Counted from the stretch's first letter, positions 1,591 through 38,553 are shown. The stretch is DNA of 64,000 bases from Candidatus Aenigmatarchaeota archaeon (GCA_016187335.1 JACPJW010000001.1:4547-68546); one strand, 5' to 3'. Numbers and translations: made by a program. Notes: generated by a model not told the origin, from the letters alone.

Positions 1591-2154
1591 TCATTGACCT
1601 AATTCGTATGTTAAGTTCGAATCCGGAGGAAGTTCCCCAACCATCGTTCTATTGCTGCGGGAATAATCCTGCAGTGGTGATTTGCTCACAGTTGCCGTTG
1701 TTTCCGATACATTTATGAAAAGCATGCTTCGTTTTCCAAAACCGAATCTCATACTTTTTGCATATGCTTCAATAGCCCAATACCCCGCCTCAACTGCTTT
1801 CACCGTGCTTCTGATCTGAATCGTTTCATTCTTTGCAATATCTCCGTTCCAAGACAGATTTCCGCTTATTAATGAAAATCCTTCAGGCAACATAACCTGA
1901 ATAAGGGTGTTTGGAGCGTCGGTAAGTGGTGTTACAGTAAAAGTGAGCTCAACAGGCTGATTTAATGAAGGCGTTCCTGTTAGAGACAAATTTACATACA
2001 TTGGAGCGGAGGGTTTCACTCCAAGTTGTGCTTCGAGTTCTTCACTTTCCTGGAGCTGTGTCTTCTCTAACCATCCCAACACCAAAACGACAAGAAGCAG
2101 CAAGCTGAATATCAAAATTATGCTCTTGCGATTCCACATTTTATGATTATTCAT
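1591..2154 (-). CDS. Secreted protein (paralog family 1)
   Basis: Signal peptide MNNHKMWNRKSIILIFSLLLLVVLVLG. Motif MLPEGFSLISGNLSWNGD...KAVEAGYW. The 5' coding ~70 nt are nearly identical to nt 390-455. Confidence 0.6.
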   Translation of the reverse strand: MNNHKMWNRKSIILIFSLLLLVVLVLGWLEKTQLQESEELEAQLGVKPSAPMYVNLSLTGTPSLNQPVELTFTVTPLTDAPNTLIQVMLPEGFSLISGNLSWNGDIAKNETIQIRSTVKAVEAGYWAIEAYAKSMRFGFGKRSMLFINVSETTATVSKSPLQDYSRSNRTMVGELPPDSNLTYELGQ

Positions 2155-22414: not shown

Positions 22415-22415
22415 A

Positions 22416-22645
22416 TCACAAAGATTCGTTAAATTCTTCAACTGTCAATCCTGCTTCCTTTATAATAGCATAAAGTGTCCCTTTCTTCATGTCCTTGTTA
22501 TGCATAGGAACAACAATTCTTTTCATTTTGTTTCTTTATGGCGCATAATAACATGACTGCCGCTCTGATGATGGATAAAGAATCCATGTTTTGCAAGAAT
22601 TCTTATAACTTCTTTCGGCTTAACAGAAGGTAGTTTAGAAGTCAT
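22416..22645 (-). pseudogene. hicA: hicA-like toxin gene disrupted by a +1/-1 frameshift
   Basis: Minus-strand translation gives MTSKLPSVKPKEVIRILAKHGFFIHHQSGSHVIMRHKETK then a stop in an A-run (~22535-22545). The next frame continues RIVVPMHNKDMKKGTLYAIIKEAGLTVEEF, the HicA signature. Confidence 0.55.
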
Positions 22646-22646
22646 C

Positions 22647-22901
22647 TCAATCTTCTATAGCGAATCTTATTTTTTCTCTTATGGGTATTTTCCTTATATC
22701 CGTTGGAAGTTCTTCCCCGTCTTTTACAAGGCTCTCGCAATAAAGCCTTATGGCTTCCCTTACGTTTTTCTTTGCTTCAGCCAGCGTGTCGCCTTCCGTT
22801 ATGCAACCCGGCAGAGAAGGAACCAAAACAGTATAGCCGCCTTCCGGTTGAGGCTCAAATATAACAGTGTATTCCAGATACTTCATTTTTTTCTTTCCCA
22901 C
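22647..22901 (-). CDS. hicB: HicB-family antitoxin
   Basis: YTVIFEPQPEGGYTVLVPSLPGCITEGDTLAEAKKNVREAIRLY, the HicB/UPF0150 signature. Confidence 0.75.
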   Translation of the reverse strand: MGKKKMKYLEYTVIFEPQPEGGYTVLVPSLPGCITEGDTLAEAKKNVREAIRLYCESLVKDGEELPTDIRKIPIREKIRFAIED

Positions 22902-22951
22902 AATTTCACCTGTAACTACATGCAGTCAGAAACTTATAAGCATATTTTCCT

Positions 22952-23221
22952 TCACGCGCAGCTGCACGCGCAGTAGTACACCGTATCGTTTGCTCCGGTC
23001 ACGTTCGCATTGTAGAAGGTGAGGTTGTTCCCGGTGCATGTGGTGTTGCACCAGCTGCTGCACATCTTGTTGGGAGTGAACGTGTCGTCTATGAGGGCAG
23101 CGGCGTAGAAGTCGCTTTTCAATAATTCAAGAGAGAATTCGCGCAAATTTGCAGATGATACGCACCCGGAAACAAGGAGAACCGCAGCAAGCGCGATTAA
23201 ATATTTCACAAAGACTTTCAT
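22952..23221 (-). CDS. Small secreted Cys-rich lipoprotein
   Basis: Internal Met start gives MKVFVKYLIALAAVLLVSGC lipobox. Mature part carries eight Cys (CSSWCNTTCTG...CACSCA). Confidence 0.4.
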   Translation of the reverse strand: MKVFVKYLIALAAVLLVSGCVSSANLREFSLELLKSDFYAAALIDDTFTPNKMCSSWCNTTCTGNNLTFYNANVTGANDTVYYCACSCA

Positions 23222-23256
23222 AAAGACTATCTTAAGGTGCAAAAATTTTAAAGACT

Positions 23257-24063
23257 TTAGAAACCGCTCTCCATCAGAATTTTCTCCGGGTTTTCCAAGA
23301 ACATTTTTTTCCAGATAACTTTTCCTTTCCTCCTGGTGTAATTTTTTACAATATAATATCCTATAGAATAGCCTGTCCACATTGGATATCTTACGCTGCC
23401 GTAAAGCACTTCCTGACGAAGATTGGGATTCTTGGAATTCAGCTTGTTTTTCATTCTTCTGAAAAAAGTTCTTGCTTCCTTTTCAGTAAGTGCTTTCGAC
23501 CAAGGGCTTGGCTTTCCGCTTAGAACAGATTCGCAAAAATCCTCTGCGATACCTTCATCTATCATCGCTTCTAATAGCGTTTTATTTTTGTGATAACCAG
23601 ACGTTGCGGCATGCGCATATTCGTGGCATATAGTGTTTGCAAGGGATTTTTGCCATTTGGATTTCGGATGGACAAAAATTGTAATTACATTTTTCCACAC
23701 GCAGAATCCGGAAGAACCTGACAAATTTTCCTTTACAAATCTGCTGTTCGTCGGAAAAATGAAAATCTTAATGTCAGAAAGCGGAACAGCTTTCTGGCAT
23801 TTTTTCAGCGCAGCAGTGATTATCCTTACTATTCTTTTTTCATCATTTTTTCCGAATGGTGGAATTCTGCCTCTGCCAATGCCCCACAAAAGATGCTTTC
23901 TCAACGCGGATTTTTGCCTGAACCCTGCATAGCCGGTATCAGAAAAGAAAAGAATTTCTTTTAGAACATCTTCAATAAAATCTTCTGTTCCGTCTTCATG
24001 ACTATTGATGAAAGTATATAGATGACTGTCGTAGATTCCTGCATTTATTTTGTAGTGCTTCAT
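23257..24063 (-). CDS. Putative Zn-dependent protease (DUF2268-like)
   Basis: HExxH-like ICHEYAHAAT motif at ~residue 135 of a ~270 aa protein. Confidence 0.45.
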   Translation of the reverse strand: MKHYKINAGIYDSHLYTFINSHEDGTEDFIEDVLKEILFFSDTGYAGFRQKSALRKHLLWGIGRGRIPPFGKNDEKRIVRIITAALKKCQKAVPLSDIKIFIFPTNSRFVKENLSGSSGFCVWKNVITIFVHPKSKWQKSLANTICHEYAHAATSGYHKNKTLLEAMIDEGIAEDFCESVLSGKPSPWSKALTEKEARTFFRRMKNKLNSKNPNLRQEVLYGSVRYPMWTGYSIGYYIVKNYTRRKGKVIWKKMFLENPEKILMESGF

Positions 24064-24073
24064 GAAATTATGT

Positions 24074-26464
24074 TTATTTCTTCCTTCTTATTTTTATTTT
24101 CCTTTTTCCGCCGGCTGTTTTCTTCTGCATGTAGAGCCAGTAGCCGAACGCCGCGATAAACAGCAGGCCGATCAGCTGCACAGAGCTGAATTCCGCAAGC
24201 CCTTCTGCGAATATGAGAACGGACCCCACAGCCTCGTACTTCTTCCCGCTGCTCCTGCTCGTCGCCGTGTATTTTATTCCGTACGAGCCGGAGCGGGCGG
24301 CCGTATCCATAAAAACTGAAACGCCCTTGCTGCCCAGTGCCGGAACATCAAGCACGGCTGCGTCGTTGTTGCCCTGGACAATTGAGCAGCCAGAAGGATT
24401 AGGGCATTCCGCGTGCATCCACTGCAGCGGCGTCACGGGGTCGTCCGACGGCTTTGAAGCTAAATCGAACGTTGCAGCTTCCAGGGGATTCCACACAGTG
24501 ACGTCGTAAGCCTTCTTATCCAGCTCGCCCGCGCTGAACCGCTTCTCAACAGGCACAACAGTGACGCGCGGCGTGCACGTGACAAAAAAGCGGAACTGGT
24601 TCACGGCGCTTAATCCCTTGTCAGGGTCCCTTGTCTTGTTCGAAAGTATGTACAAAGTATGGTAAGCGTCGCAGCTTAACGCTGCTGTAGGCGGGCTTCC
24701 GACAAATGCGTTGTCAAAATCATTCCAGCTCAGCTTTTTCCACTCAAACCTGTCTATGTCGTAAGACGCCTCGCAGTCGGCATCGTTGCATTCCTTCAGC
24801 GATGACGGATTCCCCAGAATGCCCTGCGTGACGCGCGCCAGAAAGTTGACGTTGGTGCCTCTGGTCAGGTTCGGCTCGCCTGTTGGCGTATAAGGAAACA
24901 ATTGGTTGACAACGTCAGGATATTCAACTGTGGTGCGCAAATAGCGGTTTGTCACATTCAGGTTCTTGCATCCAGGCGGAACGCACGGTGATGGCTGACC
25001 CGGCGGTATGGGTCCCGGAGGCTTCGGCTCGTTGGCAGCTGAGTATGTCACGCCGAATGTTCCGGGCTTCGTGGAGTTCCACGCCCCGGTATTGTCAACA
25101 GCAACTACGTAGGCGGTGTAGCTGCCTACGGCGAGCGATGATGTATCATAATAAGTGCACCTGTAGATGTTCCCGGAAAACAGCAGCATTTCACAGAACT
25201 TCGCCTCGCATCCGGTCGCCGTCACGTTGTTGCACGCCTTAACAGCGGAAACGGCAACATCGTCTGTCACGTCCGCGGAAAATATCACCTCGTTGCCTTG
25301 CATCACCATGCCGGGCACTATCGTGAAATTGCTTATCTGCGGCAGCAGGTTCACGCCGAAGGTGTCAGAGCCGCACCCCTCCAGCCCCTCGCTCTCAACG
25401 CATCCTGTTATTTCAGATTTGTACCTGCTCGTGTCAATCTCAACAACCCATCTCTTGTTGCTGTCGTCATAATTGCTGTTCTGGTTCCAGTTTTCCGCAA
25501 GCAGATAGTTCCTTTCCTTCGGCGTGCCTTTGTCTATGGTTATGCTTCTTATCGTAGTATCTGTCCTCGTGCAGTCCCTGCGGGCGCCCTGCGCATCGAC
25601 AAGGTAGCACGATATGTACGCGTAGACCTTCTCGCCCTCGCGCGGGTATTTGTTGGAAACAGCTGTTGTCACGTAGAGCCGCGCGGTTCCCTGCTCGAAG
25701 CGCTGCACAGTGAAGGTCGCTGTCTTTGTCGGCGAGAGCAGCGTCCCGTCGAAGGCCCTGCAATATACCGTCTTCGCCCCGGCTGAATTGCCCCACGGGT
25801 TCGTGTCAAACGTGCACGAAGGGTTCTGCGGCACGTAGCTGCTCGTGCACGCGTTGTTGCTTCCTTCAGCCGTTCCGCACTCCAGCCGGATGTTCTGGCC
25901 GTCCGGATCCGAGGCGCTGCTCGATATCGTTCCCCTTTCGTTATTGTCGGCGTTGATGACCGAAGGCGACACGCTTATCCAGTCAAGTGCCGGCGCCCTG
26001 TTCGGCTGCGATATGCACTGGCCATTTACGCACTGGTATTCGCACGCCTGGCAGTTCGATGACTGCGCTCTTGTTTGTGTCACGCTGTAGGTGCACTGGC
26101 CCTGGGTCGAGCTGCATGAATAATCCCTGTATTCCTGGTTCTGGAAAGTGCACTTCTGGTTGCCGGAGCATCCCTGGTAAGTTCCGCCGGTGTCGAACCA
26201 TCCGTTCTCGCGGCATTGCCACGTAACAATTAACGTGCACGAGCCGCAGTCGGCAGCGCATCTGCCGCAGTCTTCGTTGAACGTGAACCACATGCCGCTT
26301 TCGCATATGCCGTTGCCGCATAGAGGGTCCTCCGTGCCGCCGCGTCCCCCGTCATGGTCGGCGTAAACGATGCTTACTGAAAACATGACGGCAACAAAAA
26401 TGATTATTGTTGCTAAAAAAGCTGGCTTAGGGACCGCAATAACTTCATCCTTTTCGCGTGTCAT
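24074..26464 (-). CDS. Large Cys-rich cell-surface protein with C-terminal membrane anchor
   Basis: N-terminal signal. CGNGICE..CGRCAADCGSC module. Many Cys pairs and Ig/beta-sandwich-like regions. C-terminal TM followed by a basic tail (KKTAGGKRKIKIRRKK). Confidence 0.6.
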   Translation of the reverse strand: MTREKDEVIAVPKPAFLATIIIFVAVMFSVSIVYADHDGGRGGTEDPLCGNGICESGMWFTFNEDCGRCAADCGSCTLIVTWQCRENGWFDTGGTYQGCSGNQKCTFQNQEYRDYSCSSTQGQCTYSVTQTRAQSSNCQACEYQCVNGQCISQPNRAPALDWISVSPSVINADNNERGTISSSASDPDGQNIRLECGTAEGSNNACTSSYVPQNPSCTFDTNPWGNSAGAKTVYCRAFDGTLLSPTKTATFTVQRFEQGTARLYVTTAVSNKYPREGEKVYAYISCYLVDAQGARRDCTRTDTTIRSITIDKGTPKERNYLLAENWNQNSNYDDSNKRWVVEIDTSRYKSEITGCVESEGLEGCGSDTFGVNLLPQISNFTIVPGMVMQGNEVIFSADVTDDVAVSAVKACNNVTATGCEAKFCEMLLFSGNIYRCTYYDTSSLAVGSYTAYVVAVDNTGAWNSTKPGTFGVTYSAANEPKPPGPIPPGQPSPCVPPGCKNLNVTNRYLRTTVEYPDVVNQLFPYTPTGEPNLTRGTNVNFLARVTQGILGNPSSLKECNDADCEASYDIDRFEWKKLSWNDFDNAFVGSPPTAALSCDAYHTLYILSNKTRDPDKGLSAVNQFRFFVTCTPRVTVVPVEKRFSAGELDKKAYDVTVWNPLEAATFDLASKPSDDPVTPLQWMHAECPNPSGCSIVQGNNDAAVLDVPALGSKGVSVFMDTAARSGSYGIKYTATSRSSGKKYEAVGSVLIFAEGLAEFSSVQLIGLLFIAAFGYWLYMQKKTAGGKRKIKIRRKK

Positions 26465-27048
26465 AGCACTTCCCCCTCGAACCTCAGCACTTCCGTATCG
26501 GGCCCTATCTTGTCGAGGAAATCATCAACTGACCTGTAAACTCCGTCAGGAAAGATGTGCACGGCCATGAAAAGGTATCTTCCCTTTTCCTTTGGCGCAA
26601 AGCCCGCCACGTTGGCCGTGTGGAAGTCCTCGCCAAGCAGGGATTCAGTGCCGCATGAAATCCTGTTCACTAAATAAGTTCCCTCGAAATGCTCGTGCTG
26701 CGCAAATCTCTGCGGATAATTCACTTTCTCGACAGGCCCCCTGACAACGCAGACGTAATAAGTGTCATAATTAGCAAGGCGCTTCAGGTTCGCCTGAACC
26801 GAAAACAGCTCGCCCGGCTTGAAGCTGCTGCCCTTAAGCTGAACGAAATTGCCGTCCAGACCGCAAACAACGTAATCGCGGCCGCTGGTCAGCAGTTCGC
26901 TGGTGCACTGGTCGATGAAGGCGAGGATTTTCGCTTCCGTCAGCGGCGCTGCAGCAACAGGAGCGGATGCAGCGGGCTGTTTGATAGAAAATACAGCCAC
27001 GGCGGCAACGGCGGCGAGCACAAGAACCAATGCAGCGCCTTGTTTCAT
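26461..27048 (-). CDS. Secreted hypothetical protein
   Basis: Signal peptide MKQGAALVLVLAAVAAVAV. Stop overlaps the start of 24074..26464 by 4 nt, so likely co-transcribed. Confidence 0.45.
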   Translation of the reverse strand: MKQGAALVLVLAAVAAVAVFSIKQPAASAPVAAAPLTEAKILAFIDQCTSELLTSGRDYVVCGLDGNFVQLKGSSFKPGELFSVQANLKRLANYDTYYVCVVRGPVEKVNYPQRFAQHEHFEGTYLVNRISCGTESLLGEDFHTANVAGFAPKEKGRYLFMAVHIFPDGVYRSVDDFLDKIGPDTEVLRFEGEVL

Positions 27049-27267
27049 AAAACAACAAACCTCTTTTAATCAAACTTTGAAAATCGAATGACGCATAAAG
27101 TGCGTCTGTCTGCCTCAAAGTTTGGTTTCATGCTTTATTATTACACAGGGCGGTATAAAAATTTGTTTTGCGCTGCCTGACAGCGAAGAAAGTGCGTAAT
27201 TCCCCTGTAAAGCGCTGCCAAAAACAGAAAATGCAACTTATTTTAATCCCGTTCGGGAATAGTTAAT

Positions 27268-27927
27268 ATGCCCTACGAAGTCGAAGGCATGAGCGAGCAT
27301 CCTACCAAAAGGGCGATAGAATTTGTGCTTTTCCTGATAATCGTTTCCGCCGCGCTGACGCTCTGGTTCAACGCCGAGGCGCAGAAGCAGGAAAACGCGC
27401 CGGTATTTCCTGCCACAGGCAACGATGAGATAAACAGGATCCTGGCCACGAAGAACAACAACCTCGGCAAGAACATGAACGAGATATGGATGAGCAACTG
27501 CCGCGTTCCGAAAGAGCGCTCGCTCGTCAACCTTGTGCACATCAGCAAAAAAAGCGGCGGTTATGAAATCAGCTGCGAGTTCGGGCCTTCCTATGATTAC
27601 GTGTCGTACAATGTCGGCGGTTCGACCCCTTCCGTTTACGCCGGCTGGATCGCGGACAGGAAATGCGACGGGGAAATCGCGGCGGAAATCGACAAGGCCG
27701 TGAGGGAAGTGAACAGCTGCCCCGTGCTGCTGAGGGAAAAAATACCCGACGACCTGGCGGATTACTACGTGGTCTCGCTTTACTGCAGGAGCAATTTCAA
27801 GAAGGAATACGTGATATCCACCCGGGATATTCCAAAATGCGTGGAGCCGCTTTTGTCAGGTAATGTCGTGATACCGATTTCATACGACAGCGTCGTTGAC
27901 GTCAGGACGGGGAGGGCTTGGATTTAG
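27268..27927 (+). CDS. Membrane-anchored hypothetical protein
   Basis: Single N-terminal TM then an extracytoplasmic domain. C-terminal ~50 aa are duplicated at 28620-28784. Confidence 0.45.
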   Translation: MPYEVEGMSEHPTKRAIEFVLFLIIVSAALTLWFNAEAQKQENAPVFPATGNDEINRILATKNNNLGKNMNEIWMSNCRVPKERSLVNLVHISKKSGGYEISCEFGPSYDYVSYNVGGSTPSVYAGWIADRKCDGEIAAEIDKAVREVNSCPVLLREKIPDDLADYYVVSLYCRSNFKKEYVISTRDIPKCVEPLLSGNVVIPISYDSVVDVRTGRAWI

Positions 27928-27965
27928 AGATTAAAGCATATAATACTGGAAATTGAAATAAAATT

Positions 27966-28418
27966 ATGCCAGTTTCAGGACAATTTCCAAAACACCATAT
28001 AGACACATCTGTAATTATAGAGCCTGAAAATACCGAAGACGGAAGGTTCTGTAAACGTTATCTACAAAAACTCAATTATAATTATACCGGTATTTTATCA
28101 TTTCCAGTATTAAGCGAGATTTTTGTTATTCTCAATTCTTTGGAGGATTTCAATGAAAGATACGATTTTATAGAACCTCTGCTGGCTATGGTTAAATCAA
28201 GAAATATAGAGTTCTACGCTCCGAAAGATATAGGAAATCTTCTTAACAGCATTAAATCAACTGAGAAAAGAATTGGTTTTGTAGACAGCGAAATAGTTGC
28301 CTGCGCAGCTGAAGATAAAGCTGATGCCTTGATAACCCTTGATAGAGATTTGATAAACAACAAGAACCTGGAAAAGTTATTGAGAATAAGGATACTTCAT
28401 CCTAAAGATTTGCTGTAA
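27966..28418 (+). CDS. PIN-domain ribonuclease (VapC-like), no adjacent antitoxin
   Basis: Acidic PIN residues (IDTSVII...AAEDKADALITLDRDL). AT-rich relative to flanks. Confidence 0.65.
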   Translation: MPVSGQFPKHHIDTSVIIEPENTEDGRFCKRYLQKLNYNYTGILSFPVLSEIFVILNSLEDFNERYDFIEPLLAMVKSRNIEFYAPKDIGNLLNSIKSTEKRIGFVDSEIVACAAEDKADALITLDRDLINNKNLEKLLRIRILHPKDLL

Positions 28419-28577
28419 TTTATTTGTTATACTTTTTGTGCAATGACTTGTGTATGGCTTTGGCTTTTTCAAATACGCCCTTCGCTTCCGCCTTTCTGCG
28501 CAACATTTCGGCTCTCTTTTCTTCGTCTGTCATAATAGCACTAACCATATATCAGGCCAGAGAATATTTAAGGCTTC

Positions 28578-28784
28578 TTGCAAAAACATCAGAACCCTCC
28601 GCCCGCATCCAGCGAGCGGTCGGACTACCAAGTTTTCACGCTTTACTGCAGAGATTTCAAGAAAGAGTACTTGTCCTTGCGCAGCGACATACCTCAGTGC
28701 GTCTCGAAGATATTTGACAACGTCATTGTGGATGTGACAGTTACGGACGTCGTTGACGTCAGGACGGGAAGGTTCTGGGTGTAG
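28578..28784 (+). pseudogene. Duplicated 3' fragment of gene 27268..27927
   Basis: Translation ...YCRDFKKEYLSLRSDIPQCV...VDVRTGRFWV parallels the C-terminus ...YCRSNFKKEYVISTRDIPKCV...VDVRTGRAWI of the upstream gene. Nucleotide similarity is visible from 27770-27927 versus 28620-28784. Confidence 0.55.
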
Positions 28785-28793
28785 ATAAAGACA

Positions 28794-29906
28794 CTAAGCC
28801 GCTCTGTAAAGATTAATGTATTTTCCTTCTTCGATTCCGGTGACAACAATGCTTCTTTCTGGAACAAGCAAGCCGTCGCTTCTTTCCGAAAAGCCAAAAA
28901 GCTGCTCTAAAAATCTTCCTGCCTCTTCTAGAAATTCTCTTCGGCCCTCCTGCCTGTACAAGTCGGGCCTGCAAGGGTTTTTGAAAGGCGGAAAATATCT
29001 TGGCTCTGCTCTGAATGTTTTCTGTTCAAGGAAATTCTTTAAATCTCGTTTTTTCGGATCTAAATCTATTTTTCCTTTTTTACCAGACAGATAGGCATGA
29101 GCCCATTCTACTGCCCTGACTACTCGCGGCGTATATACAGATTCAGAATCAAAGTCTTCTCCTTTCTTGAATGAGGGATCCGTTCCCAATTCAAGTTCAT
29201 TAACTCTTTCTTCCGTTTCTTTCGCAACATTCTCAAAATCTACGTTAGGATTACTGCCATCATAGATAACAATGTTCCCTTTATCATCCCTAACAAAAAG
29301 CAGGAAGGGATTTACAGTCCTGACGACGTTGTATCTTTTGTTAGGATAACCTTTGTCTGTCCATTTTTGGTATCTTCCTCCCCGAAACCACGTTGGTACG
29401 ATACAGCCGAAATGAAGAACGTAATCTCCTTTTCTTGTACCTGTATTGCCGCCTTCACCTAGTTGAGTTGTTGGGGAAACATTTTGACCTAAAAATACGT
29501 TCCATGAATTCAAGTGCTGGTAATCTGTAAGATGTCCTAAACCGTGGCCAACTGTTACACTTTTGATTGAACCAAAACGGGTTTTGTAAGATGGTGGATC
29601 ATCTCCCCGATAAACCACAATCCCATTTCCTGCCGCCATAACTGGCGTGTAAGGCGGGCGCTCCCTTACTTTAAAATCTACTCCTCCCGGATCTATACCT
29701 AAATGGTTTTCATAACCCCCGCCTTCTATTATTACCGGTTGTCCTGGAACACATGCAGCAGGAGAAGAATAAGCGGATGGATTTCCAATAGCCTTTATAT
29801 CGGCATAAGACGGTCTAACCCCAAGTAAAGTTATACCATCGCCGATACTGCCTGCGACCAAGATTTTGACAACTTCTCTGCGCGTATACGAAGGACCTGA
29901 ACTCAT
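28794..29906 (-). CDS. M23-family metallopeptidase (LytM-like), Tat/Sec-exported
   Basis: RREVVKILVAG twin-Arg-like signal. HLGIDPGG (HxxxD) ... GHGLGHLTDYQHL ... GNTGTRKGDYVLHFG M23 motifs. Confidence 0.7.
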   Translation of the reverse strand: MSSGPSYTRREVVKILVAGSIGDGITLLGVRPSYADIKAIGNPSAYSSPAACVPGQPVIIEGGGYENHLGIDPGGVDFKVRERPPYTPVMAAGNGIVVYRGDDPPSYKTRFGSIKSVTVGHGLGHLTDYQHLNSWNVFLGQNVSPTTQLGEGGNTGTRKGDYVLHFGCIVPTWFRGGRYQKWTDKGYPNKRYNVVRTVNPFLLFVRDDKGNIVIYDGSNPNVDFENVAKETEERVNELELGTDPSFKKGEDFDSESVYTPRVVRAVEWAHAYLSGKKGKIDLDPKKRDLKNFLEQKTFRAEPRYFPPFKNPCRPDLYRQEGRREFLEEAGRFLEQLFGFSERSDGLLVPERSIVVTGIEEGKYINLYRAA

Positions 29907-29976
29907 AGATAATATTTATTTTTCATTACATTTAAAGGTTTCGTTTTTAATTACTTAAAAGAAGTAACGTTTTAAA

Positions 29977-30627
29977 TTATGGTTCACCACCACTGGTAAG
30001 TTGCTCACCTGTGCCACCGCCGGTTCCGCCAGAATTAGTGCCCTTTCCTCCTCCGCCAGCTGGCCCGCTCCCGGTCTGTATTTGAGGATCTACATTCCCT
30101 CCTCCGCTTGGCCCCCCTTGCTCGCTCCCGCCCCCCGGGCACCCCGTAAACGTCACCGTGCATGACCTGCCGCGCTGCACCACTGGGCCTGTGTCCGTGC
30201 AGCCGGTGGAGTAGCCCCTAATGTCGGCTTCAGAACCTGATCTTACTAGCTGAGCACCCCACCCATTGTCCGTCTCGAATGCTTGGCAGTCGCCGCTGCC
30301 GCATTGCTGCATAGCATAAGCAGCGCTTGCGCACGTTCCTGCCCTGTCGCAGCCGCCTTGGTCTTTGAACGATTCATATCCTGTTTCTGTTATTTGTGAA
30401 CCTCCACCAAACGAGCTGACAACAGCATTAGCAACCGCGCTTATTGCATCAACAATAGCATCAAAAAAATCTCTTACTGCGTCCCAAAACCCGAATTTAA
30501 CAAATTTTTTCCCGGATAGGTCTTCCGTATTTGTATTAAAAAGGAAAGATGAAACTGCACCTATTGCGTATATGAAAGAAGTCATGACAAGCAATGCCAC
30601 GAGAGAGGCAAGAAACTCGTTTCTCAT
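29977..30627 (-). CDS. Secreted Gly-rich Cys-containing protein
   Basis: Signal/TM at the N-terminus. Eight Cys in the middle. C-terminal GGxGG low-complexity tail. Confidence 0.4.
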   Translation of the reverse strand: MRNEFLASLVALLVMTSFIYAIGAVSSFLFNTNTEDLSGKKFVKFGFWDAVRDFFDAIVDAISAVANAVVSSFGGGSQITETGYESFKDQGGCDRAGTCASAAYAMQQCGSGDCQAFETDNGWGAQLVRSGSEADIRGYSTGCTDTGPVVQRGRSCTVTFTGCPGGGSEQGGPSGGGNVDPQIQTGSGPAGGGGKGTNSGGTGGGTGEQLTSGGEP

Positions 30628-30690
30628 GGTAATAGTATGAATAAAGCCGCAATAAATAGTTTTTGAACTAACCTTTGAAAACTTTGGATT

Positions 30691-31827
30691 TTAATTTCTT
30701 CTGAAATCACTTTCATAAATTTGGTAATATTTACCTCTTTCAAGGGCATCCATAATTTCCCATATTGTTTTACCTAACCTTTCTGTTCTAAGCGACTCAA
30801 TAAAATTCCTGCCTGCTGGTGTATGAGCTTTACGACCTTGTGGCGGTATTCCTTTCCTTTCGGGTGCAAGAAAATACCATATGCTAAGATCGTAATTATT
30901 ACGGGTCCTAGGACTTAACCATATGTCTGTAGCATATCCAGCCACATCGTATCTTATTCCTTCTATTGTCACCCTCCATCTTCCTTTAGGTGGTGGATCA
31001 AATTTTATAATTTGTAAATTAGCTCTGTTTTCATCTATTGGCAGTCTAACTCCTTCTAATCCCTTGATTCTACTCACATCAATTGTAGCGTAAATATTCA
31101 AATTTGGTGGATCGGCAGGGTCGTATTTGTTTTTAATCACTCTTATCAATAATTCGCCTTGGCCTATTGCCCTCAAAGAAAGCGGTTTCAGTTTCCCTGA
31201 ACCTGGAAAATAAACATCGTATCCTTTGCATGTGGCTGCAATTTCGCCCTTTCTTACGCCTTCTAAATAAGGTTCAGCAAAACCAGAAAATTTCAATGCT
31301 TGCGGGTTTCTGCGCAAAAGTTCACTAAGTTTAGAAAAGTCCCATCTTTCCGGTGTTGTTGAGCAAGGGAAAATAGGTGCCTCTTCCTGCGGTGTCGGTT
31401 GAGTCGTTACAGGCTGCTGCCCGTCTGCCGGCTGCTGGTCCTGTGCCGCTCCGGGCGGCGCTGGAGGAGGCGCATCCGTGCTCTGGCTTGCGCTAATATT
31501 CGGTGCGTAAGAAAGCGCTCCAAGCAATGCGATCGCTGTAAGTTCTGTTGCAAGCCGGGTTCTTTGGTTATATCCTCTTTTCATTACGCTTGCTTCCACA
31601 TTTTCCGGGTCCACAACATTCTGCTGCACATACCTTAAAGCGACATCACGCTGCTTTAACAGGTATTGTCCTGTCGCACTGGCACGATTCATTGCGGCAC
31701 TAAATTGGTCTCGTGCATAGCCTCGTGCGGCATTCCAGTAGCTTGCCAATGAACGACTTCCAGAAGTAACCCTGCCCATTATTTCTGTCCTTTGCTGCTG
31801 CTCCGTCGGCCTTAATACTATTCCCAT
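30691..31827 (-). CDS. Membrane-anchored protein with Pro-rich linker (paralog family 3)
   Basis: Cytoplasmic N-terminal domain, TM (LATELTAIALLGALSYAPNI), linker DAPPPAPPGAAQDQQPADGQQPVTTQPTPQEE, then a ~220 aa C-terminal domain. ~120 nt are near-identical to the paralog 31863..32987. Confidence 0.55.
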   Translation of the reverse strand: MGIVLRPTEQQQRTEIMGRVTSGSRSLASYWNAARGYARDQFSAAMNRASATGQYLLKQRDVALRYVQQNVVDPENVEASVMKRGYNQRTRLATELTAIALLGALSYAPNISASQSTDAPPPAPPGAAQDQQPADGQQPVTTQPTPQEEAPIFPCSTTPERWDFSKLSELLRRNPQALKFSGFAEPYLEGVRKGEIAATCKGYDVYFPGSGKLKPLSLRAIGQGELLIRVIKNKYDPADPPNLNIYATIDVSRIKGLEGVRLPIDENRANLQIIKFDPPPKGRWRVTIEGIRYDVAGYATDIWLSPRTRNNYDLSIWYFLAPERKGIPPQGRKAHTPAGRNFIESLRTERLGKTIWEIMDALERGKYYQIYESDFRRN

Positions 31828-31862
31828 CTTTTCAATGTTCATCTTATTTAGTTTTTTGTTAA

Positions 31863-32987
31863 TTAATGTTTAAATTCGTCAGAATGACGACCATAGTAAT
31901 TGCCTTTATTCATTTTATCTATAACTTCCCACATAATATCTCCAAATATTCTTGATTTATCAATATTTTTAAAATTCCTGCCAGCCGGTGTGTAGCCCTT
32001 GAACCCTTGCACGGGTGGTATCATTCCGGATTTAAAATACAATATACCAAAATCAAATTTGTTGGATGTTTTGGGGTTGAGCCACACATCTATTCCAAAT
32101 TCGGTTATATCGTATCTTATTCCTCCGAATGTTATTGGCCACCTTCCTTGAACAGATGGATCATATTTGTATACTCTTAAGTTAGGTCTATTTTCATTTA
32201 TTGGAAAGTTTATTTGCTCTAAGCCTCTAATTCCTTTTACAGTTATTACGAAATCAGTATTCAAATTCGTAGGGGCATCTGGGTAGTACTTATTTCCAAT
32301 GACATTCATCAACAATTCCCCATCGGGCCCAATAGCTCTGAGTGGGAAAGGCTTTTGCCCTCTTCTCAGGAAAGAAATATCATAACCTATGCACGTTGCT
32401 GTAGTTTCTCCTGATTCAACAGCTTTTACATAAGGCGCGGCATGACTGGAAAATTTCAGTACTCTCTGTCTTCTTGGACCTAAAAATAATTCTTTGAATT
32501 TAGGGTTGCTCGCATTCCATGTTTCTCCTGATTTGGCGCAAGGGAAAATAGTTCCTTCTTCCTGCGGTGCCGGTTGAGTCGTTACAGGCTGCTGCCCGTC
32601 TGCCGGAGGCTGGTCCTGCCCCGCTCCCGGTGGTGCAGGCGGCGGCGCATCCGTGCCCTGGCTTGCGCTAATATTCGGTGCGTAAAGCATTAGACCGGCT
32701 AAACCTGTGGCAAGCGCTCCGGCGCGTCTTTTTTGTGATGGTCTGTTCCGCAGTACGTCTCCTTCAACTTGAGCTGCCAGCTTCAATCCCGATAAATAAT
32801 CAGAAACAGCTTTGCTTTGCCTTCCGGCGTATTTTGAAAAAGTGTCCGCTTTATCTAAGGCATAAGTTCCAGCAGTTCTGGCTTGGCTTGACAAGTAACC
32901 TCTCACTGCGCCTAAGTAACCTCTTGGATTTCCGCTGACGATTTCTGCCCTGACCTGCTCTTCTGGCATTCGTATACTTATTCCCAT
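31863..32987 (-). CDS. Membrane-anchored protein with Pro-rich linker (paralog family 3)
   Basis: Same architecture and same linker sequence as 30691..31827. Confidence 0.55.
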   Translation of the reverse strand: MGISIRMPEEQVRAEIVSGNPRGYLGAVRGYLSSQARTAGTYALDKADTFSKYAGRQSKAVSDYLSGLKLAAQVEGDVLRNRPSQKRRAGALATGLAGLMLYAPNISASQGTDAPPPAPPGAGQDQPPADGQQPVTTQPAPQEEGTIFPCAKSGETWNASNPKFKELFLGPRRQRVLKFSSHAAPYVKAVESGETTATCIGYDISFLRRGQKPFPLRAIGPDGELLMNVIGNKYYPDAPTNLNTDFVITVKGIRGLEQINFPINENRPNLRVYKYDPSVQGRWPITFGGIRYDITEFGIDVWLNPKTSNKFDFGILYFKSGMIPPVQGFKGYTPAGRNFKNIDKSRIFGDIMWEVIDKMNKGNYYGRHSDEFKH

Positions 32988-33097
32988 CTCTACCCTCTCT
33001 TAACCACTCTTAAGTGACAAGTATAAATATATCCGCGGCGGTATATAAAGTTTCCGCCTGGACCCTGTTTATATAGGGCTTGAAAGGATTAAAGGGT

Positions 33098-33469
33098 TTA
33101 GACCTTCAGCGGAATTACTGGGATGCCCAGTTTCCCGTATTTCCTGTCAGAGCTTATTATGGGCTGGCCTTCTGCCAGGACGGCGTTGAAGGCGTCAAAA
33201 ACGCCCAGATTGTTATTCTTTATGTGATTTACAATTTCCATGCCCTGCTTTATCGTCATTCCTTTTATGTCAGCTATCTGGAAAATGGAAGCGACGATAT
33301 TTTCCATGTCCAAATTCTCCCTTTTCGCGACAAGTAGGAGTCCGGCCAGCGTAAGGACAGAAGTTTCTATACTGCCTTTGTATTCCTCGTAAATCTTCTT
33401 GGCGCCCGTCTTCAGCCAGTCTTCCTTTTTTATCATGGCGAGAAAAAAATCCGTGTCCGCGTAAACCAT
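33098..33469 (-). CDS. vapC: PIN-domain toxin VapC
   Basis: MVYADTDFFLA N-terminal PIN signature. 123 aa. Confidence 0.7.
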   Translation of the reverse strand: MVYADTDFFLAMIKKEDWLKTGAKKIYEEYKGSIETSVLTLAGLLLVAKRENLDMENIVASIFQIADIKGMTIKQGMEIVNHIKNNNLGVFDAFNAVLAEGQPIISSDRKYGKLGIPVIPLKV

Positions 33470-33470
33470 G

Positions 33471-33719
33471 CTATCTTCCTGCCTCTTTCAGCGCTTCCTC
33501 GTACGCCTCCTTTCGGAGCTGCTTTATCGTCTTGCCCTTTAGCTTTTCCCCTTCCTTCTGCAGTGTTTTTACCGGGTCCTTTGGCAGCGGCTTCAGCAGT
33601 ATCCCTTCTTTTTTGATTGGGATTACAACAAATTCGTCGGTTCCGAATTCTTCAACAACATCCCTGCTTAATGTAATTCTCCTTCTTTCGTCCATTCTTG
33701 TTTTTGTCATGCTTTTCAC
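33471..33719 (-). CDS. vapB: AbrB/SpoVT-type antitoxin VapB
   Basis: RRITLSRDVVEEFG swapped-hairpin motif. Stop abuts the vapC start. Confidence 0.65.
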   Translation of the reverse strand: MKSMTKTRMDERRRITLSRDVVEEFGTDEFVVIPIKKEGILLKPLPKDPVKTLQKEGEKLKGKTIKQLRKEAYEEALKEAGR

Positions 33720-33869
33720 CCACGTATATTCAATATGTGGGTAAATATTTAAATTTATGGGTAATTTAAACTATAACCCATTATTGAACTTTTCTCAGAA
33801 ATCACATCACAATCACACAAGCTCACGCTTATATACCGCCCACGACAAAAATTTATCTGAGGTGGATAC

Positions 33870-34154
33870 ATGCCGTTATTGAGCGTACATAACATGGATT
33901 TGCTCCTTGTGCTGTTCGCGGTCCTCTATTTGGGAAGGGCAGCGCTGTTCAGGGATAAGGTGCCGAACGGGTTCAAGTGGCTCGCGGCCGGAGGCCTGGT
34001 TATACTCGTGCCTGTGGGCCTGTCAGCTGTGAACTGGACACTGCTGGGAATGCTCGAGGTGTTCCGCACGGTCGACACGTGGCTGAGCCTGCTTGGAGGA
34101 CTTCTTATCCTGGCCGGTTCCGTCAAGACCCTGATGGAGCTCTTCAGCAAGTGA
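33870..34154 (+). CDS. Small membrane protein, hypothetical
   Basis: 94 aa with three predicted TM helices. Confidence 0.35.
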   Translation: MPLLSVHNMDLLLVLFAVLYLGRAALFRDKVPNGFKWLAAGGLVILVPVGLSAVNWTLLGMLEVFRTVDTWLSLLGGLLILAGSVKTLMELFSK

Positions 34155-34249
34155 CCCTTTTCACGAGTAAACGCGAAAAAGCGTCAACGGAAAAGTATAT
34201 GGCCCGGACAGAATTGAGAACGCTGACAGTTTTTTGCTTTTCTTTTTTC

Positions 34250-34272
34250 AATAAATATCTGCGGGCTAAAGC
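34250..34272 (+). promoter_or_regulatory. Conserved upstream motif AATAAATATCTGCGGG(C/A)TAAAGC
   Basis: Same 23-nt motif recurs at 40347-40369. Both copies sit ~20-45 nt upstream of +-strand start codons (34317 and 40390). Confidence 0.35.
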
Positions 34273-34316
34273 CCGAATGAGACAGGAAGCTGAGCATTCG
34301 CTTCCGCTTGTAGATA

Positions 34317-34958
34317 ATGATTTTTATGCCTAAAAGAAAACCGAAGCGGGCAGTGAAAAAGAAAAGCCCCCTTTACGTTATCCTTGTTCTAGGCGTCATC
34401 GCGCTGTTCGCTGTTGTGTATTCGTACCGCGGCGCTGCGCTGGTGAATGCCAGCGCGGACGACGATCCTTCGCTGGGCAGTGAAAACGCCCCTGTCACGA
34501 TGATAATGTTCAGCAATTACGCCTGTTCGTTCAGCAGGGACTTCTGGCAGGACACCTTCCCGCTTCTGAAGCAGCAGTATATAGACACGGGCAAAATCAG
34601 GTTCGTTTTCAGGGATTTCCCCGTTCAGACGCCAGGCGTCATTGATTCCTCGCTCGCTGCGGAGTGCGCCGACGACCAGGGGAAATTCTGGGAATACAAC
34701 AATGCGCTTGTCAATTCCGTCCGCATCGACAAGGACAGCCTGAAAGAATACGCTTCTGATCTTGGCCTGGATACGGAACAATTCAACAGCTGCCTCGATT
34801 CGCAGCAGCGTCTGGCAGAAGTCAGGAAGGACTTCAGCAACGGCGTTTCCTACGGCGTCCGCGGCACGCCCACGTTCTTCATCAACGGCCTGCGCGTCGA
34901 GGGCGGCGAGAGCTTTTCGTTCTTCGCGCAGCTGATTGAGAAGGAATTGGCGAAGTAA
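34317..34958 (+). CDS. DsbA-family thioredoxin-fold protein with CxxS active-site variant
   Basis: N-terminal TM. MIMFSNYACSFSRDF (C-S-F-S in place of CxxC). C-terminal RGTPTFFINGLRVEGG. Confidence 0.65.
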   Translation: MIFMPKRKPKRAVKKKSPLYVILVLGVIALFAVVYSYRGAALVNASADDDPSLGSENAPVTMIMFSNYACSFSRDFWQDTFPLLKQQYIDTGKIRFVFRDFPVQTPGVIDSSLAAECADDQGKFWEYNNALVNSVRIDKDSLKEYASDLGLDTEQFNSCLDSQQRLAEVRKDFSNGVSYGVRGTPTFFINGLRVEGGESFSFFAQLIEKELAK

Positions 34959-34998
34959 ATGGCTGATTTTCTCTAGACGGCCCTCATCGTTAATGCAG

Positions 34999-35625
34999 TT
35001 ACCTGATTTCTCTCAGTATTTTTTCCTTGAGCATCTTTATTTTCCTGGCGTCTTCTATTCCCAGGTAGCTGAACTCGCTTCTTGCGCCCCGGACTATTTC
35101 TTTCAGCCTTCTGGGATAATTTTCCATGCCGTATTTTTCCGCGGTGGCAATATAATTTTTCAGGCTTATTCCGGAATTCAGCAGCAGGTTAAGTATATCA
35201 ACCCTGTCCTTCTGCCCTTTTATGGAGTCTTTTCTTGCAAGCTCGGCCTGCTGTTTCAGGATCAGCAGTATTTCAGGCTTCGGCACCTTGAATCCTTCTA
35301 TTCTTATTGTATTCTTTTTCACCGCTTCTGCGGGAATAATAAACTTCGAATAAAACGGCACGTATATGTCCACGGATATTTCGTTTATTTTCGTTTCGTA
35401 TTTTTTCAGGAAATCCGTTTTCTTAATCCCGTGCGCCAGCTTAAGCTTTTCCAATCCTTCAAAGTCGACTATTATGTCGATGTCCTTGGACTTTATTGCC
35501 TTTGTGTGCAGGTAAACTGCCCAGCCTCCTATCAGGATGAAATCTATCTCCTTTGCCAGCGATATCAGAACGTCCCAGCTCCTGTCAACTATAAGGTCAT
35601 CCCAGAACTCGCTTGATGTGCTCAT
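34999..35625 (-). CDS. Nucleotidyltransferase (AbiEii/minimal NTase-like)
   Basis: LIGGWAVYLH...SKDIDIIVD nucleotidyltransferase motif. Confidence 0.5.
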   Translation of the reverse strand: MSTSSEFWDDLIVDRSWDVLISLAKEIDFILIGGWAVYLHTKAIKSKDIDIIVDFEGLEKLKLAHGIKKTDFLKKYETKINEISVDIYVPFYSKFIIPAEAVKKNTIRIEGFKVPKPEILLILKQQAELARKDSIKGQKDRVDILNLLLNSGISLKNYIATAEKYGMENYPRRLKEIVRGARSEFSYLGIEDARKIKMLKEKILREIR

Positions 35626-36184
35626 CTATCTTCGCCTCCAATGCCTTCAGGAATTCCTGCGCGTACCATGTGTTTATGTTCCAGAGATCAGCGAAAAGCT
35701 GGGCCATCGGCACGGATTTGAATTTCCTCAGGTGCTCATCCATTCTAAGGACGATGACATTCGGCTTCCCTTTTTTCAACGGGAACCTTTCAGCAATGTG
35801 CTCGTCGCCGTAGACGTAAACCTCGCCGTAATCAGACGGCACTGAACGGAAAAGCATCTTGTAGCCGGAATACGCTGTAAATACCACCTCAGGCATGCTT
35901 TTCTCTATCTCTTCAACAGGCGCATCAGAATGCGTTTGGTAAACAACATCCCTTTGCAGCTTCCTGACCGAGGCCCAGTAAAGCAGCATCTTCTTTGCAT
36001 CCAGTACCCTGAAGCCCATGTGCTTTTTTTCTATGGCGCCCATGCTTTCCAGCGGCTTCAGTGCGTGGTTAACGCTGCCTATTGATATGCCGCATTCCTC
36101 AGCAAGCTTTTTCTGGCTGAAGAAATTCTTCTTCTTTTCCAGCAACTGGAATAAAATCTCGCGATAAACCCGCTCAATTTTCAT
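35597..36184 (-). CDS. Winged-HTH transcriptional regulator (AbiEi-like partner)
   Basis: N-terminal HTH (LAEECGISIGSVNHALKPL). Overlaps the start of the downstream NTase gene. Confidence 0.5.
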   Translation of the reverse strand: MKIERVYREILFQLLEKKKNFFSQKKLAEECGISIGSVNHALKPLESMGAIEKKHMGFRVLDAKKMLLYWASVRKLQRDVVYQTHSDAPVEEIEKSMPEVVFTAYSGYKMLFRSVPSDYGEVYVYGDEHIAERFPLKKGKPNVIVLRMDEHLRKFKSVPMAQLFADLWNINTWYAQEFLKALEAKIDEHIKRVLG

Positions 36185-36221
36185 TTATTTCACTATTTCA
36201 TTTTTATAATAGATAATTATT

Positions 36222-36249
36222 TAAAGGTTTCAAATTTTATTGAAACCTT
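36222..36249. promoter_or_regulatory. Inverted repeat AAAGGTTTCAA-N6-TTGAAACCTTT upstream of the HTH gene
   Basis: Perfect 11-bp arms ~40 nt upstream of the 36184 start codon. Confidence 0.35.
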
Positions 36250-36302
36250 TATATTTTAATCAAAAAACAAATTGAAAGCAACAACCGATGCCATGCCATA
36301 AA

Positions 36303-36347
36303 GTTACTAATACAAATATTTCAATCTAGCTAAATTGTATTAGTAAC
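36303..36347 (-). terminator. Strong hairpin immediately 3' of the M50 protease gene
   Basis: GTTACTAATACAA-N19-TTGTATTAGTAAC, perfect 13-bp arms beginning 3 nt after the stop at 36350. Confidence 0.4.
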
Positions 36348-36349
36348 TT

Positions 36350-37659: not shown

Positions 37660-38553
37660 TTGATAGCTATGAGCTGGTTTTTGTTCGTGCTTCTTGCCGT
37701 CAATTTGTGGTCATTTTCCAATATAATTGACAAGCACGTCGTGAGCAATCACGTAAAGAATCCCATGATACCTATAAGTGTGCAGGCTCTCGGCATAGCG
37801 GTTTATATTGTCTTTATAGCGCTCATATGGGGAATTTCTGTTCCATCACCACTGTACATAGTACTGTCTCTTTTCAGCGGATTTCTACTGTTTTCCGGAA
37901 TTGTTCTATACTTCGAGGCTCTGAAGCATGATGAAGTTTCAAGGGTAATGCCTCTTTTTGCCACTGCCCCGATATTTACGCTGATATTTGCAACATTCTT
38001 CCTCGGAGAACTCTTTACGGCAGACAAATATATAGGAATAGCCTTGCTGGTTCTGGGCTCCGTTATTATCTCATACAGACGCAATCAACAATACAAATTC
38101 AGCAAAGGGGTTATTTTCATGCTTGCCTCCTCTCTCATTTTCAGCATTAGCTACATTATAACCAAATATCTTAGCGGTTCAATGGACGTTCTCAATATAT
38201 TTCTTCTGACGGAACTAGGCCTTGCTTTTTTTGGCGGTATCGTTTTCCTGAAGTATAGGTCCGAGATCTCGAGTATTTATAGAAAAAATAGCAAGGTCAT
38301 CTACTTTATAATTCTGTCTGGAGCGTTCGGTTTCTTTGGCTTCCTGCTATATTTCAGCGCCATTTCCCAGGGGTCTGTATCTCTTGTAGTCGCTCTGGAC
38401 AACACCCAATGGGTCTTTGTCCTATTTTATGCAACGCTGATAAGCATCTTCCTGCCCGGTGTGCTTAAGGAAGATCTGAAAGGCTCTGTTGTGGCTTTAA
38501 AATTGCTCGCGATAGCAATCATATTTGCCGGAGCGTATTTGGTATCGGTGTAA
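37660..38553 (+). CDS. EamA/DMT-family transporter
   Basis: ~10 TM helices in two repeated halves. Confidence 0.55.
   Translation: MIAMSWFLFVLLAVNLWSFSNIIDKHVVSNHVKNPMIPISVQALGIAVYIVFIALIWGISVPSPLYIVLSLFSGFLLFSGIVLYFEALKHDEVSRVMPLFATAPIFTLIFATFFLGELFTADKYIGIALLVLGSVIISYRRNQQYKFSKGVIFMLASSLIFSISYIITKYLSGSMDVLNIFLLTELGLAFFGGIVFLKYRSEISSIYRKNSKVIYFIILSGAFGFFGFLLYFSAISQGSVSLVVALDNTQWVFVLFYATLISIFLPGVLKEDLKGSVVALKLLAIAIIFAGAYLVSV

Follow-up and report, generated by a model that had tools for sequence, protein, structure and literature searches.

In the chromosome of an Aenigmarchaeota archaeon, an inserted, lineage-specific island that codes for secreted and surface proteins carries a gene for an M23/LytM-type zinc-peptidase domain that has kept its zinc ligands and lost one of its catalytic histidines. 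This gene is one of four that occupy positions 28794-32987, on the minus strand, of a 64,000-nucleotide (nt) stretch of a metagenome assembly (Candidatus Aenigmatarchaeota archaeon, GCA_016187335.1, JACPJW010000001.1:4547-68546); the whole stretch will be referred to as the window. The other three encode a Gly-rich orphan protein, predicted to be exported, and two tandem paralogs, A and B, which belong to no recognised family. Our preferred reading, which is tentative and to which we assign a probability of about 0.45, is that the M23 protein binds, and perhaps slowly cuts, bacterial peptidoglycan, and that the paralogs are stalked binding modules of the cell surface.

The M23 Domain and Its Active Site

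The M23 protein (28794-29906, minus strand; 370 amino acids, aa; MBI2578103.1) bears the NCBI name 'M23 family metallopeptidase', and the domain, already recognised in an initial annotation of the locus made from the sequence alone, is real: the Pfam match to PF01551 covers residues 75-167 and scores 42.7 bits (E = 6.4e-11), where 28.7 is the cutoff. In addition, NCBIfam gives sub-threshold local matches to the models of DipM, Pgp3, Pgp6, MepM, ShyA, and ActS, and the best PDB chains are those of DipM (E = 4.7e-07), followed by Pgp3, ShyA, and zoocin A. All of these nearest models and solved structures are peptidoglycan endopeptidases or LytM factors.

The M23 family is defined by the motifs H(x)nD together with HxH, whose first His is not a zinc ligand but a proposed activator of water (PMC9662197). 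The initial annotation had made its interpretation depend on the presence of the catalytic residues, and their status was read from an alignment with six bacterial and phage M23 domains found by tblastn in phage and plasmid collections. Within the catalytic core (residues 68-167; 29406-29705, minus strand), the columns invariant in all seven sequences are H68, D77, Y129, H131, and L164. The zinc-ligand His is H68, which is aligned in all six reference domains. For the zinc-ligand Asp, the multiple alignment gives D77, as does the comparison with a Streptomyces phage tape-measure domain, with the spacing H(x)7D; the alternative is D72, which stands in perfect HxGxD register in a pairwise alignment with a Pseudarthrobacter enzyme. 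The sequence HLGID-PGGVD provides both H(x)nD registers, and the Pfam register, when taken alone, puts P73 at the position of the ligand His. The third zinc ligand is H165, within VLHFG, which aligns with the second His of HxH (LHF in Pgp3 and DipM); this column holds His in six of the seven sequences and Asp, in the form LDF, in the Acaryochloris domain. The catalytic His located about 30 residues before HxH (H260 of LytM) is present as well, as H131 in DYQHL, in an invariant column, and the surrounding consensus (TPV.A...G.V, Y.HL, and G.TG) is retained.

Four of the five canonical residues, i.e., the three zinc ligands and H131, are in place, whereas the fifth is not: where HxH should have its first His, the protein has Y162/V163 and, with a one-residue insertion, reads Y-V-L-H. 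With all the zinc ligands kept and this His lost, the protein can be classed neither with the canonical active enzymes nor with the classic degenerate factors, and the loss of metal-coordinating residues that marks degenerate LytM domains is not seen in it. It probably binds zinc, with a catalytic step that would be impaired or altered.

Probable Export, C-Terminal Half, and Possible Origin of the M23 Protein

The initial annotation had proposed to look for a signal of the twin-arginine translocation (Tat) type, and a Tat-like signal peptide can be read directly from the translation of residues 1-35 (29802-29906, minus strand). This N-terminus has the form MSSGPSY-TRREVVK-ILVAGSIGDGITLLGV-RPSYA|D, in which the Tat-like motif T8-R-R-E-V-V-K14 precedes a weakly hydrophobic h-region, ILVAGSIGDGITLLGV, and then RPSYA|D. 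The protein is thus a candidate for export through a Tat-type signal, probably in a folded state; neither TatA nor TatC was seen among the window open reading frames (ORFs) scanned.

Residues 190-370 have no match in Pfam, NCBIfam, or the PDB (chance-level hits only), nor by tblastn against plasmids, and the full protein, in the large protein search, returned only itself. In the databases searched, the closest proteins to the M23 domain are generic M23 domains with 33-40% identity over ∼110 aa. Because its relatives are only of this generic kind, a bacterial or phage origin is plausible, and no donor can be named. The protein may be best described as a very divergent domain of the bacterial M23/LytM type.

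The Tandem Paralogs

Paralog B (31863-32987, minus strand) has 374 aa and corresponds to HYW26_00175, which NCBI calls from Met7 with 368 aa. Paralog A (30691-31842, minus strand; 383 aa; HYW26_00170, MBI2578105.1) has the same architecture, and its true start is likely Met6, at 31827, a position that aligns with the start of paralog B. The two proteins are 45% identical (E = 2e-97). Their description in the initial annotation as related tandem copies is correct in this respect, but the linker that it called identical is 84% identical at the coordinates it gave, after a 5-nt shift.

Both paralogs begin with an N-terminal region of ∼85-95 aa in which Ala, Arg, Gln, and Tyr are abundant, and a cluster of basic residues (KRGYNQRTR in A, RNRPSQKRR in B) precedes a hydrophobic segment of 15-18 residues. 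This segment is weak, no 19-residue Kyte-Doolittle window exceeding 1.4, and is followed in both proteins by the conserved YAPNISA|SQ. Then come a Pro/Gln/Thr-rich stalk of ∼40 aa and an ectodomain of ∼225 aa (∼228 aa in B) with two conserved Cys. With positive residues before the hydrophobic segment, an N-in/C-out orientation is favoured; the segment's low hydrophobicity and the A-x-A-like ISA|S may also suit a cleavable signal. Membrane anchoring, which the initial annotation had stated outright, is therefore plausible, with cleavage as a possible alternative. If the paralogs are indeed N-in/C-out surface proteins, the Pro/Gln-rich stalk would hold a disulfide-bonded ectodomain off the membrane.

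In the N-terminal part, the proportion of nonsynonymous differences (pN, 0.48) is lower than that of synonymous differences (pS, 0.73), and pN is below pS in the C-terminal part as well; for the ectodomain, the ratio of nonsynonymous to synonymous substitution rates (dN/dS) is ∼0.24, with dS saturated. The possibility that the N-terminal extension of ∼90 aa is an artefact of ORF calling was rejected, because both ORFs are open, the indels are in frame, and pN is lower than pS.

The region between these parts is different. A direct repeat of 169 nt, 86% identical, joins 31342-31510 in paralog A to 32517-32685 in paralog B (both minus strand), and reaches from the end of the signal or anchor through the Pro/Gln linker into the first part of the ectodomain. 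In 20-codon windows of the comparison between A and B, the linker has 85-90% nucleotide identity against 40-67% elsewhere, and its pS is 0.28 against 0.67-0.73 in the rest of the genes. The longest exact run between the two linkers is 36 nt, at 31396-31431 and 32571-32606. The low synonymous divergence of the linker points to gene conversion between the tandem copies. Conversion of this kind may keep anchor and stalk alike, while the ectodomains would diverge under purifying selection, and such a combination fits paralogous binding modules on a common anchor. Recombination between the linker repeats could also generate A/B chimeras.

Logan assemblies made independently from nine samples contain this M23 gene as well. 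Of the nine contigs listed, five (L001-L005) begin at one base, window position 31425, inside the 36-nt exact repeat. Since it is the longer contigs that begin inside this repeat, the repeat is real and the common start is a repeat-induced assembly break. The idea that the tandem pair is an assembly artefact of strain variants was rejected too, as the copies are only 45% identical and the Logan assemblies agree with a real repeat.

The placement of the paralogs outside all recognised families, proposed at the outset, has held up in every search, and among about 15 billion proteins they have no relative beyond each other. When paralog A was compared with 5.8 billion clusters by a word-indexed search, the sole matches were A and B, and nothing below E = 0.03 was found for the paralogs in Pfam, NCBIfam, PHROGs, PADLOC, or the PDB. 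A profile of the paralogs, run with HMMER against 1.84 billion representatives, recovered only A, B, and a repeat protein of 1,235 aa (P0004). The latter was rejected, as the similarity consists of a short 'IKYDPSGQxxW' hairpin motif, with an hhalign probability of 12%. The profile gave empty results against IMG/VR viral contigs and JGI metagenome contigs, as did tblastn of paralog A against phages and plasmids.

The Gly-Rich Protein

The third product of the cluster is a Gly-rich and Cys-rich protein of 216 aa (29977-30627, minus strand; HYW26_00165, MBI2578104.1). Gly makes up 20% of the whole and 43% of the last 56 residues, there are GGG and GGGG runs, and the Cys residues number 7. The N-terminus is hydrophobic at residues 5-30, either a signal or an anchor, with a possible cleavage site at IYA|IG. 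Residues 46-66 form a strongly amphipathic helix, with a hydrophobic moment of 0.60 at a mean hydrophobicity of 0.30, and between this helix and the Gly tail lies the part that contains the seven Cys. The protein has no relative in Pfam, NCBIfam, PHROGs, the PDB (chance-level hits only), JGI metagenomes, or plasmids, a scope that does not include the large protein databases. With paralogs A and B, it would be the third exported orphan protein of the cluster.

Gene Order and the 13.9-kb Insertion

ORF calling returned the four genes at the place given in the initial annotation, which had set the start of paralog A at 31827 and had described the M23 gene as the first of the group. With all four on the minus strand, they are transcribed in the order paralog B, paralog A, the Gly-rich gene, and finally the M23 gene, with intergenic gaps of 20, 63, and 70 nt in this order. 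Because only 20 nt separate the paralogs, these two are probably co-transcribed.

Outside the island, the window looks like ordinary archaeal chromosome, with Pfam matches for class I LysRS, Pus10, DUF655, DUF763, GatB, AspRS, RNase HII, and FtsZ; the first four of these bear out the initial annotation, which had taken the genome to be archaeal. Relatives were found by a LysRS search of species-representative genomes (Aenigmatarchaeota L010, L011, L012, and L016). In L011, whose LysRS, on a contig of 549 kb, is 57% identical to that of the window, the order AspRS, RNase HII, Pus10, DUF655, M50, LysRS is collinear with the window. DUF655, the M50 protease, and LysRS are contiguous in both L011 and L012, with 9 nt between DUF655 and M50 in L011. 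In the window, the ends of these two genes are at 22414 and 36350, respectively. Given that the two genes are adjacent in the relatives and 13.9 kb apart here, the intervening 22415-36349, which contains the four-gene cluster, is a lineage-specific insertion, set into a backbone that would otherwise be the conserved Aenigmarchaeota one.

The Preferred Reading and Its Rivals

According to the reading that we prefer, the M23 protein, having kept three zinc ligands and one of two water-activating His, would most likely act outside the cell by binding bacterial peptidoglycan at its peptide stems or cross-bridges. Cleavage would probably be slow or chemically altered, and the protein may serve to contact neighbouring bacteria, to feed on them, or to antagonise them. 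For pseudomurein, the other target raised in the initial annotation, no support was obtained.

Several observations weigh against this reading. The first is the missing His itself, since the protein has GDYVLHF where the reference domains have GPH-LHF or GCH-LHF, and the matching residue of Pgp3, H247, is termed strictly conserved, the H247A variant having been made to impair catalysis (PMC6978369). The M23 protein also has no recognised wall-binding domain (PG_binding_1, LysM, or SH3), PF01551 being the sole domain found, whereas the archaeal hydrolases on record are of modular build, a catalytic domain being joined to a recognised wall-binding one. The structural models are of no help: AlphaFold2 gave a predicted local distance difference test score (pLDDT) of 30.9 for the M23 protein as a single sequence and 36.4 for the paralog ectodomain with a two-sequence alignment, so that the modelling check envisaged for the paralogs ended in an unusable model, as did that of the M23 protein. 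Moreover, neither the paralogs nor the Gly-rich protein nor the M23 protein's C-terminal half was found in any other genome, and with the partner genes confined to one genome, nothing supports a functional coupling of the four genes. The gaps of 63 and 70 nt are AT-rich, and separate promoters are possible there. Finally, the cluster sits in a hotspot of fast-evolving secreted genes, which weakens any function inferred from adjacency, and the insertion is full of orphan secreted genes and toxin-antitoxin modules, which makes fortuitous adjacency a serious alternative. The 'enzyme-plus-accessory surface system' of the initial annotation was drawn from adjacency in this one genome, and is not supported.

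The strongest rival, which we regard as quite possible, is that there is no system, only four independent, fast-evolving secreted or surface genes that stand side by side, with A and B alone related through tandem duplication. The island is lineage-specific and filled with unrelated orphan secreted proteins and toxin-antitoxin modules, duplicated orphan genes in tandem also occur elsewhere in the window, and the lineage-specific families of DPANN archaea are mostly membrane-bound or extracellular proteins without predicted function (PMC8204110). The AT-rich gaps lie before the Gly-rich and M23 genes, although separate transcription has no positive evidence in its favour, the four genes share one strand with short gaps, and all four products appear to be exported.

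A second rival takes the M23 domain as catalytically dead, a binding module or 'substrate trap' for peptidoglycan peptides or for a protein partner, with a role in adhesion or regulation. We hold this to be unlikely, though the Tyr/Val in place of the first HxH His speaks for it. In Pgp3, crystals of the H247A variant held bound substrates, which the wild-type crystals turned over (PMC6978369). DipM, the best PDB match, is a non-catalytic LytM regulator that also lacks this His, reading QLHF there, and degenerate M23 folds are known to stay functional as protein interaction hubs (PMC9662197, PMC10336132). What separates the M23 protein from the classic LytM factors (DipM, EnvC, NlpD, and ActS) is that these lose metal ligands, DipM keeping one of three (PMC10336132), whereas here all three are kept together with H131. 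These factors also carry LysM or coiled-coil domains, absent here, and regulate the amidases or lytic transglycosylases of a murein of their own, which archaea lack. No cognate autolysin, whether an amidase or a lytic transglycosylase, was found among the window ORFs scanned with Pfam; the sole 'Amidase' match, PF01425, adjoins GatB and is probably GatA.

Action on proteins in place of peptidoglycan is a third proposal, in which the M23 protein trims Gly-Gly bonds, be it in its Gly-rich neighbour or in proteins on the surface of the cell or a host. Among M23 enzymes, those of the lysostaphin type are glycyl-glycine endopeptidases, and LasA cleaves proteins as well; the neighbouring gene product offers GGG and GGGG runs in addition to its tail with 43% Gly, and the organism lacks a murein of its own. 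All of this is purely circumstantial, however, as Gly richness may just mark a flexible tail and no conserved pairing of such genes was found, and we deem the proposal improbable.

It is very improbable that an integrated virus or plasmid has left the island as its remnant, with the M23 protein as a virion- or element-associated lysin: tape-measure, minor head, and endolysin families are among the PHROGs matches of the M23 domain, its best phage tblastn matches are tape-measure proteins of Streptomyces phages, the island carries toxin-antitoxin modules, and the M23 gene has a GC content of 42.9% against 47.3% for the window, but the phage similarity is limited to the generic M23 core (37-40% identity), no integrase, capsid, terminase, or replication gene occurs among the island ORFs scanned, no direct repeats longer than 10 nt flank the island and no att-like repeats lie at its borders, no tRNA gene or Rfam family was found in the window, and neither the paralogs (in IMG/VR, phages, and plasmids) nor the full-length M23 protein (in IMG/VR viral contigs) have relatives there. 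Likewise, the four-gene cluster has no match among the PADLOC defence models. The most novel scheme, a four-gene cell-contact device for attachment to bacteria and feeding on them, is very improbable too; in it, the stalked paralogs, with anchors made uniform by gene conversion and with variable ectodomains, would dock a zinc-loaded M23 domain, attenuated by the change of His to Tyr/Val, that grips the peptide stems of a bacterial host's wall without destroying them, while the amphipathic Gly-rich protein would act on the host membrane.

Relation to Known Systems and Significance

The initial annotation had implied that an M23 peptidase is surprising in an archaeon. Secreted and Tat-signalled archaeal M23 hydrolases, including some from Nanoarchaeia, have already been published, however: Strock et al. 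(2025) report modular peptidoglycan hydrolases in ∼5% of archaeal genomes, prominently in Nanoarchaeota, with recognised signal peptides in about a third of the hydrolases, 35% of these being Tat signals (PMC12352652). Homologues of M23 occur there in ten archaeal genomes, four of them Nanoarchaeia, a DPANN group, and the Tat-signalled M23 enzyme Woldo, from Halogranum salarium, was shown to kill bacteria (PMC12352652). The protein described here resembles these hydrolases in having an M23 domain and, as read from the sequence, a Tat-like signal in an archaeon that lacks murein, and in a patchy, lineage-specific distribution that suggests horizontal acquisition; it differs from those of the Woldo type in the absence of a binding domain, in the missing first HxH His, in its Aenigmarchaeota host, and in having no close homologue. 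With the active M23B endopeptidases (LytM, lysostaphin, Pgp3, ShyA, and MepM), it shares the Pfam core, the zinc ligands, and the His about 30 residues before HxH, whereas its HxH is altered, its H(x)nD is ambiguous (HLGID followed directly by PGGVD), and its context is archaeal.

For DPANN archaea, extracellular murein-degrading domains have been proposed to serve in attachment to, or attack on, bacteria (PMC8204110, PMC10936187). Castelle et al. (2021) found that lineage-specific DPANN families are mostly exported or membrane-bound and of unknown function, and described an Aenigmarchaeota-specific module (PMC8204110). The orphan exported and membrane proteins of the present locus, within a narrow DPANN lineage, are similar to these families, and its M23 protein recalls the large proteins of Woesearchaeota and Pacearchaeota with murein lytic transglycosylase domains (PMC8204110) in being a bacterial wall-degrading domain. 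Unlike those cases, the paralogs are known from a single genome and are no phylum-level module, and the enzyme is an M23 peptidase and not a transglycosylase. The locus thus fits, in a modest way, themes already in the literature, as a secreted archaeal M23 homologue amid orphan genes, and no new system is demonstrated.

Its wider meaning is inferred from a single genome. If the M23 protein acts on bacterial walls, this groundwater member of the Aenigmarchaeota would interact with bacteria, and a non-modular enzyme without one catalytic His would join the recently recognised archaeal peptidoglycan hydrolases. The change of His to Tyr/Val with intact zinc ligands would be a natural experiment, in which either the first HxH His is dispensable or its loss turns a hydrolase into a binder. 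The paralogs, in turn, may illustrate how the surface genes of DPANN archaea arise and diversify: the genes are duplicated in tandem, their anchors are subject to gene conversion, and their ectodomains diverge.

Other Genes of the Island and of the Window

In addition to the four genes, the island encodes a zinc protease of the DUF2268 family and orphan exported proteins of 796, 195, and 219 aa. The first of these orphans (24074-26464, minus strand) is a Cys-rich surface protein that has hydrophobic segments at both termini and ends in a Lys/Arg tail, and a second, small Cys-rich protein, encoded at 22952-23221 on the minus strand, has a lipobox-like LLVSGC. A membrane-anchored DsbA/thioredoxin-like protein is encoded within the island as well (34317-34958, plus strand). 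The presence of Cys-rich exported proteins and a DsbA-like protein in one island suggests dedicated extracytoplasmic disulfide formation, and it is plausible that the DsbA-like protein is the oxidant for the Cys-containing exported proteins of the island.

Two PIN genes are also present, one of them beside an ORF of 82 aa without Pfam match, a possible antitoxin. The PIN gene at 27966-28418 lies between the gene of the 219-aa orphan (27268-27927, plus strand) and a 68-aa ORF (28578-28784, plus strand) that is a diverged copy of the C-terminus of this orphan (50% over 56 aa, tblastn). It looks as if the PIN gene had either been inserted into the orphan gene or been duplicated along with part of it.

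Both edges of the island carry gene pairs. On the left, a HicA-like ORF (22523-22645, minus strand), cut to 40 aa by a stop, adjoins a HicB-like gene (22647-22901, minus strand; Pfam PF15919), and the remaining HicA-like sequence seems, judged by eye only, to continue downstream in another frame; this is probably a decaying toxin-antitoxin pair. On the right, the overlapping ORFs 34999-35625 and 35597-36184 (both minus strand) encode a nucleotidyltransferase resembling DUF6036 and a protein of the winged-helix type, which is weakly similar to the helix-turn-helix part of Csa3/CARF regulators. They may be another pair of the toxin-antitoxin or defence type.

A second, smaller lineage-specific insertion is visible outside the island. 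An EamA transporter gene (37660-38553, plus strand) lies between M50 and LysRS in the window and in the closest relative, L010 (80% LysRS identity), and is missing from this position in L011, L012, and L016.

Tandem orphans without Pfam match occur at two further places in the window. Three paralogous copies, 27-45% identical, are found at 10-453, 597-1589, and 1591-2154 (minus strand), the third running off the start of the window. A pair of 891 and 737 aa (16619-19294 and 19419-21632, minus strand), 27-54% identical over several segments, has no match, for either member, in the stretch of L011 that was compared. Tandem duplication of orphan genes thus seems to be a general habit of this genome. 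Outside the island, finally, a 467-aa protein with a CAP/SCP domain (42602-44005, minus strand) is a candidate secreted protein.

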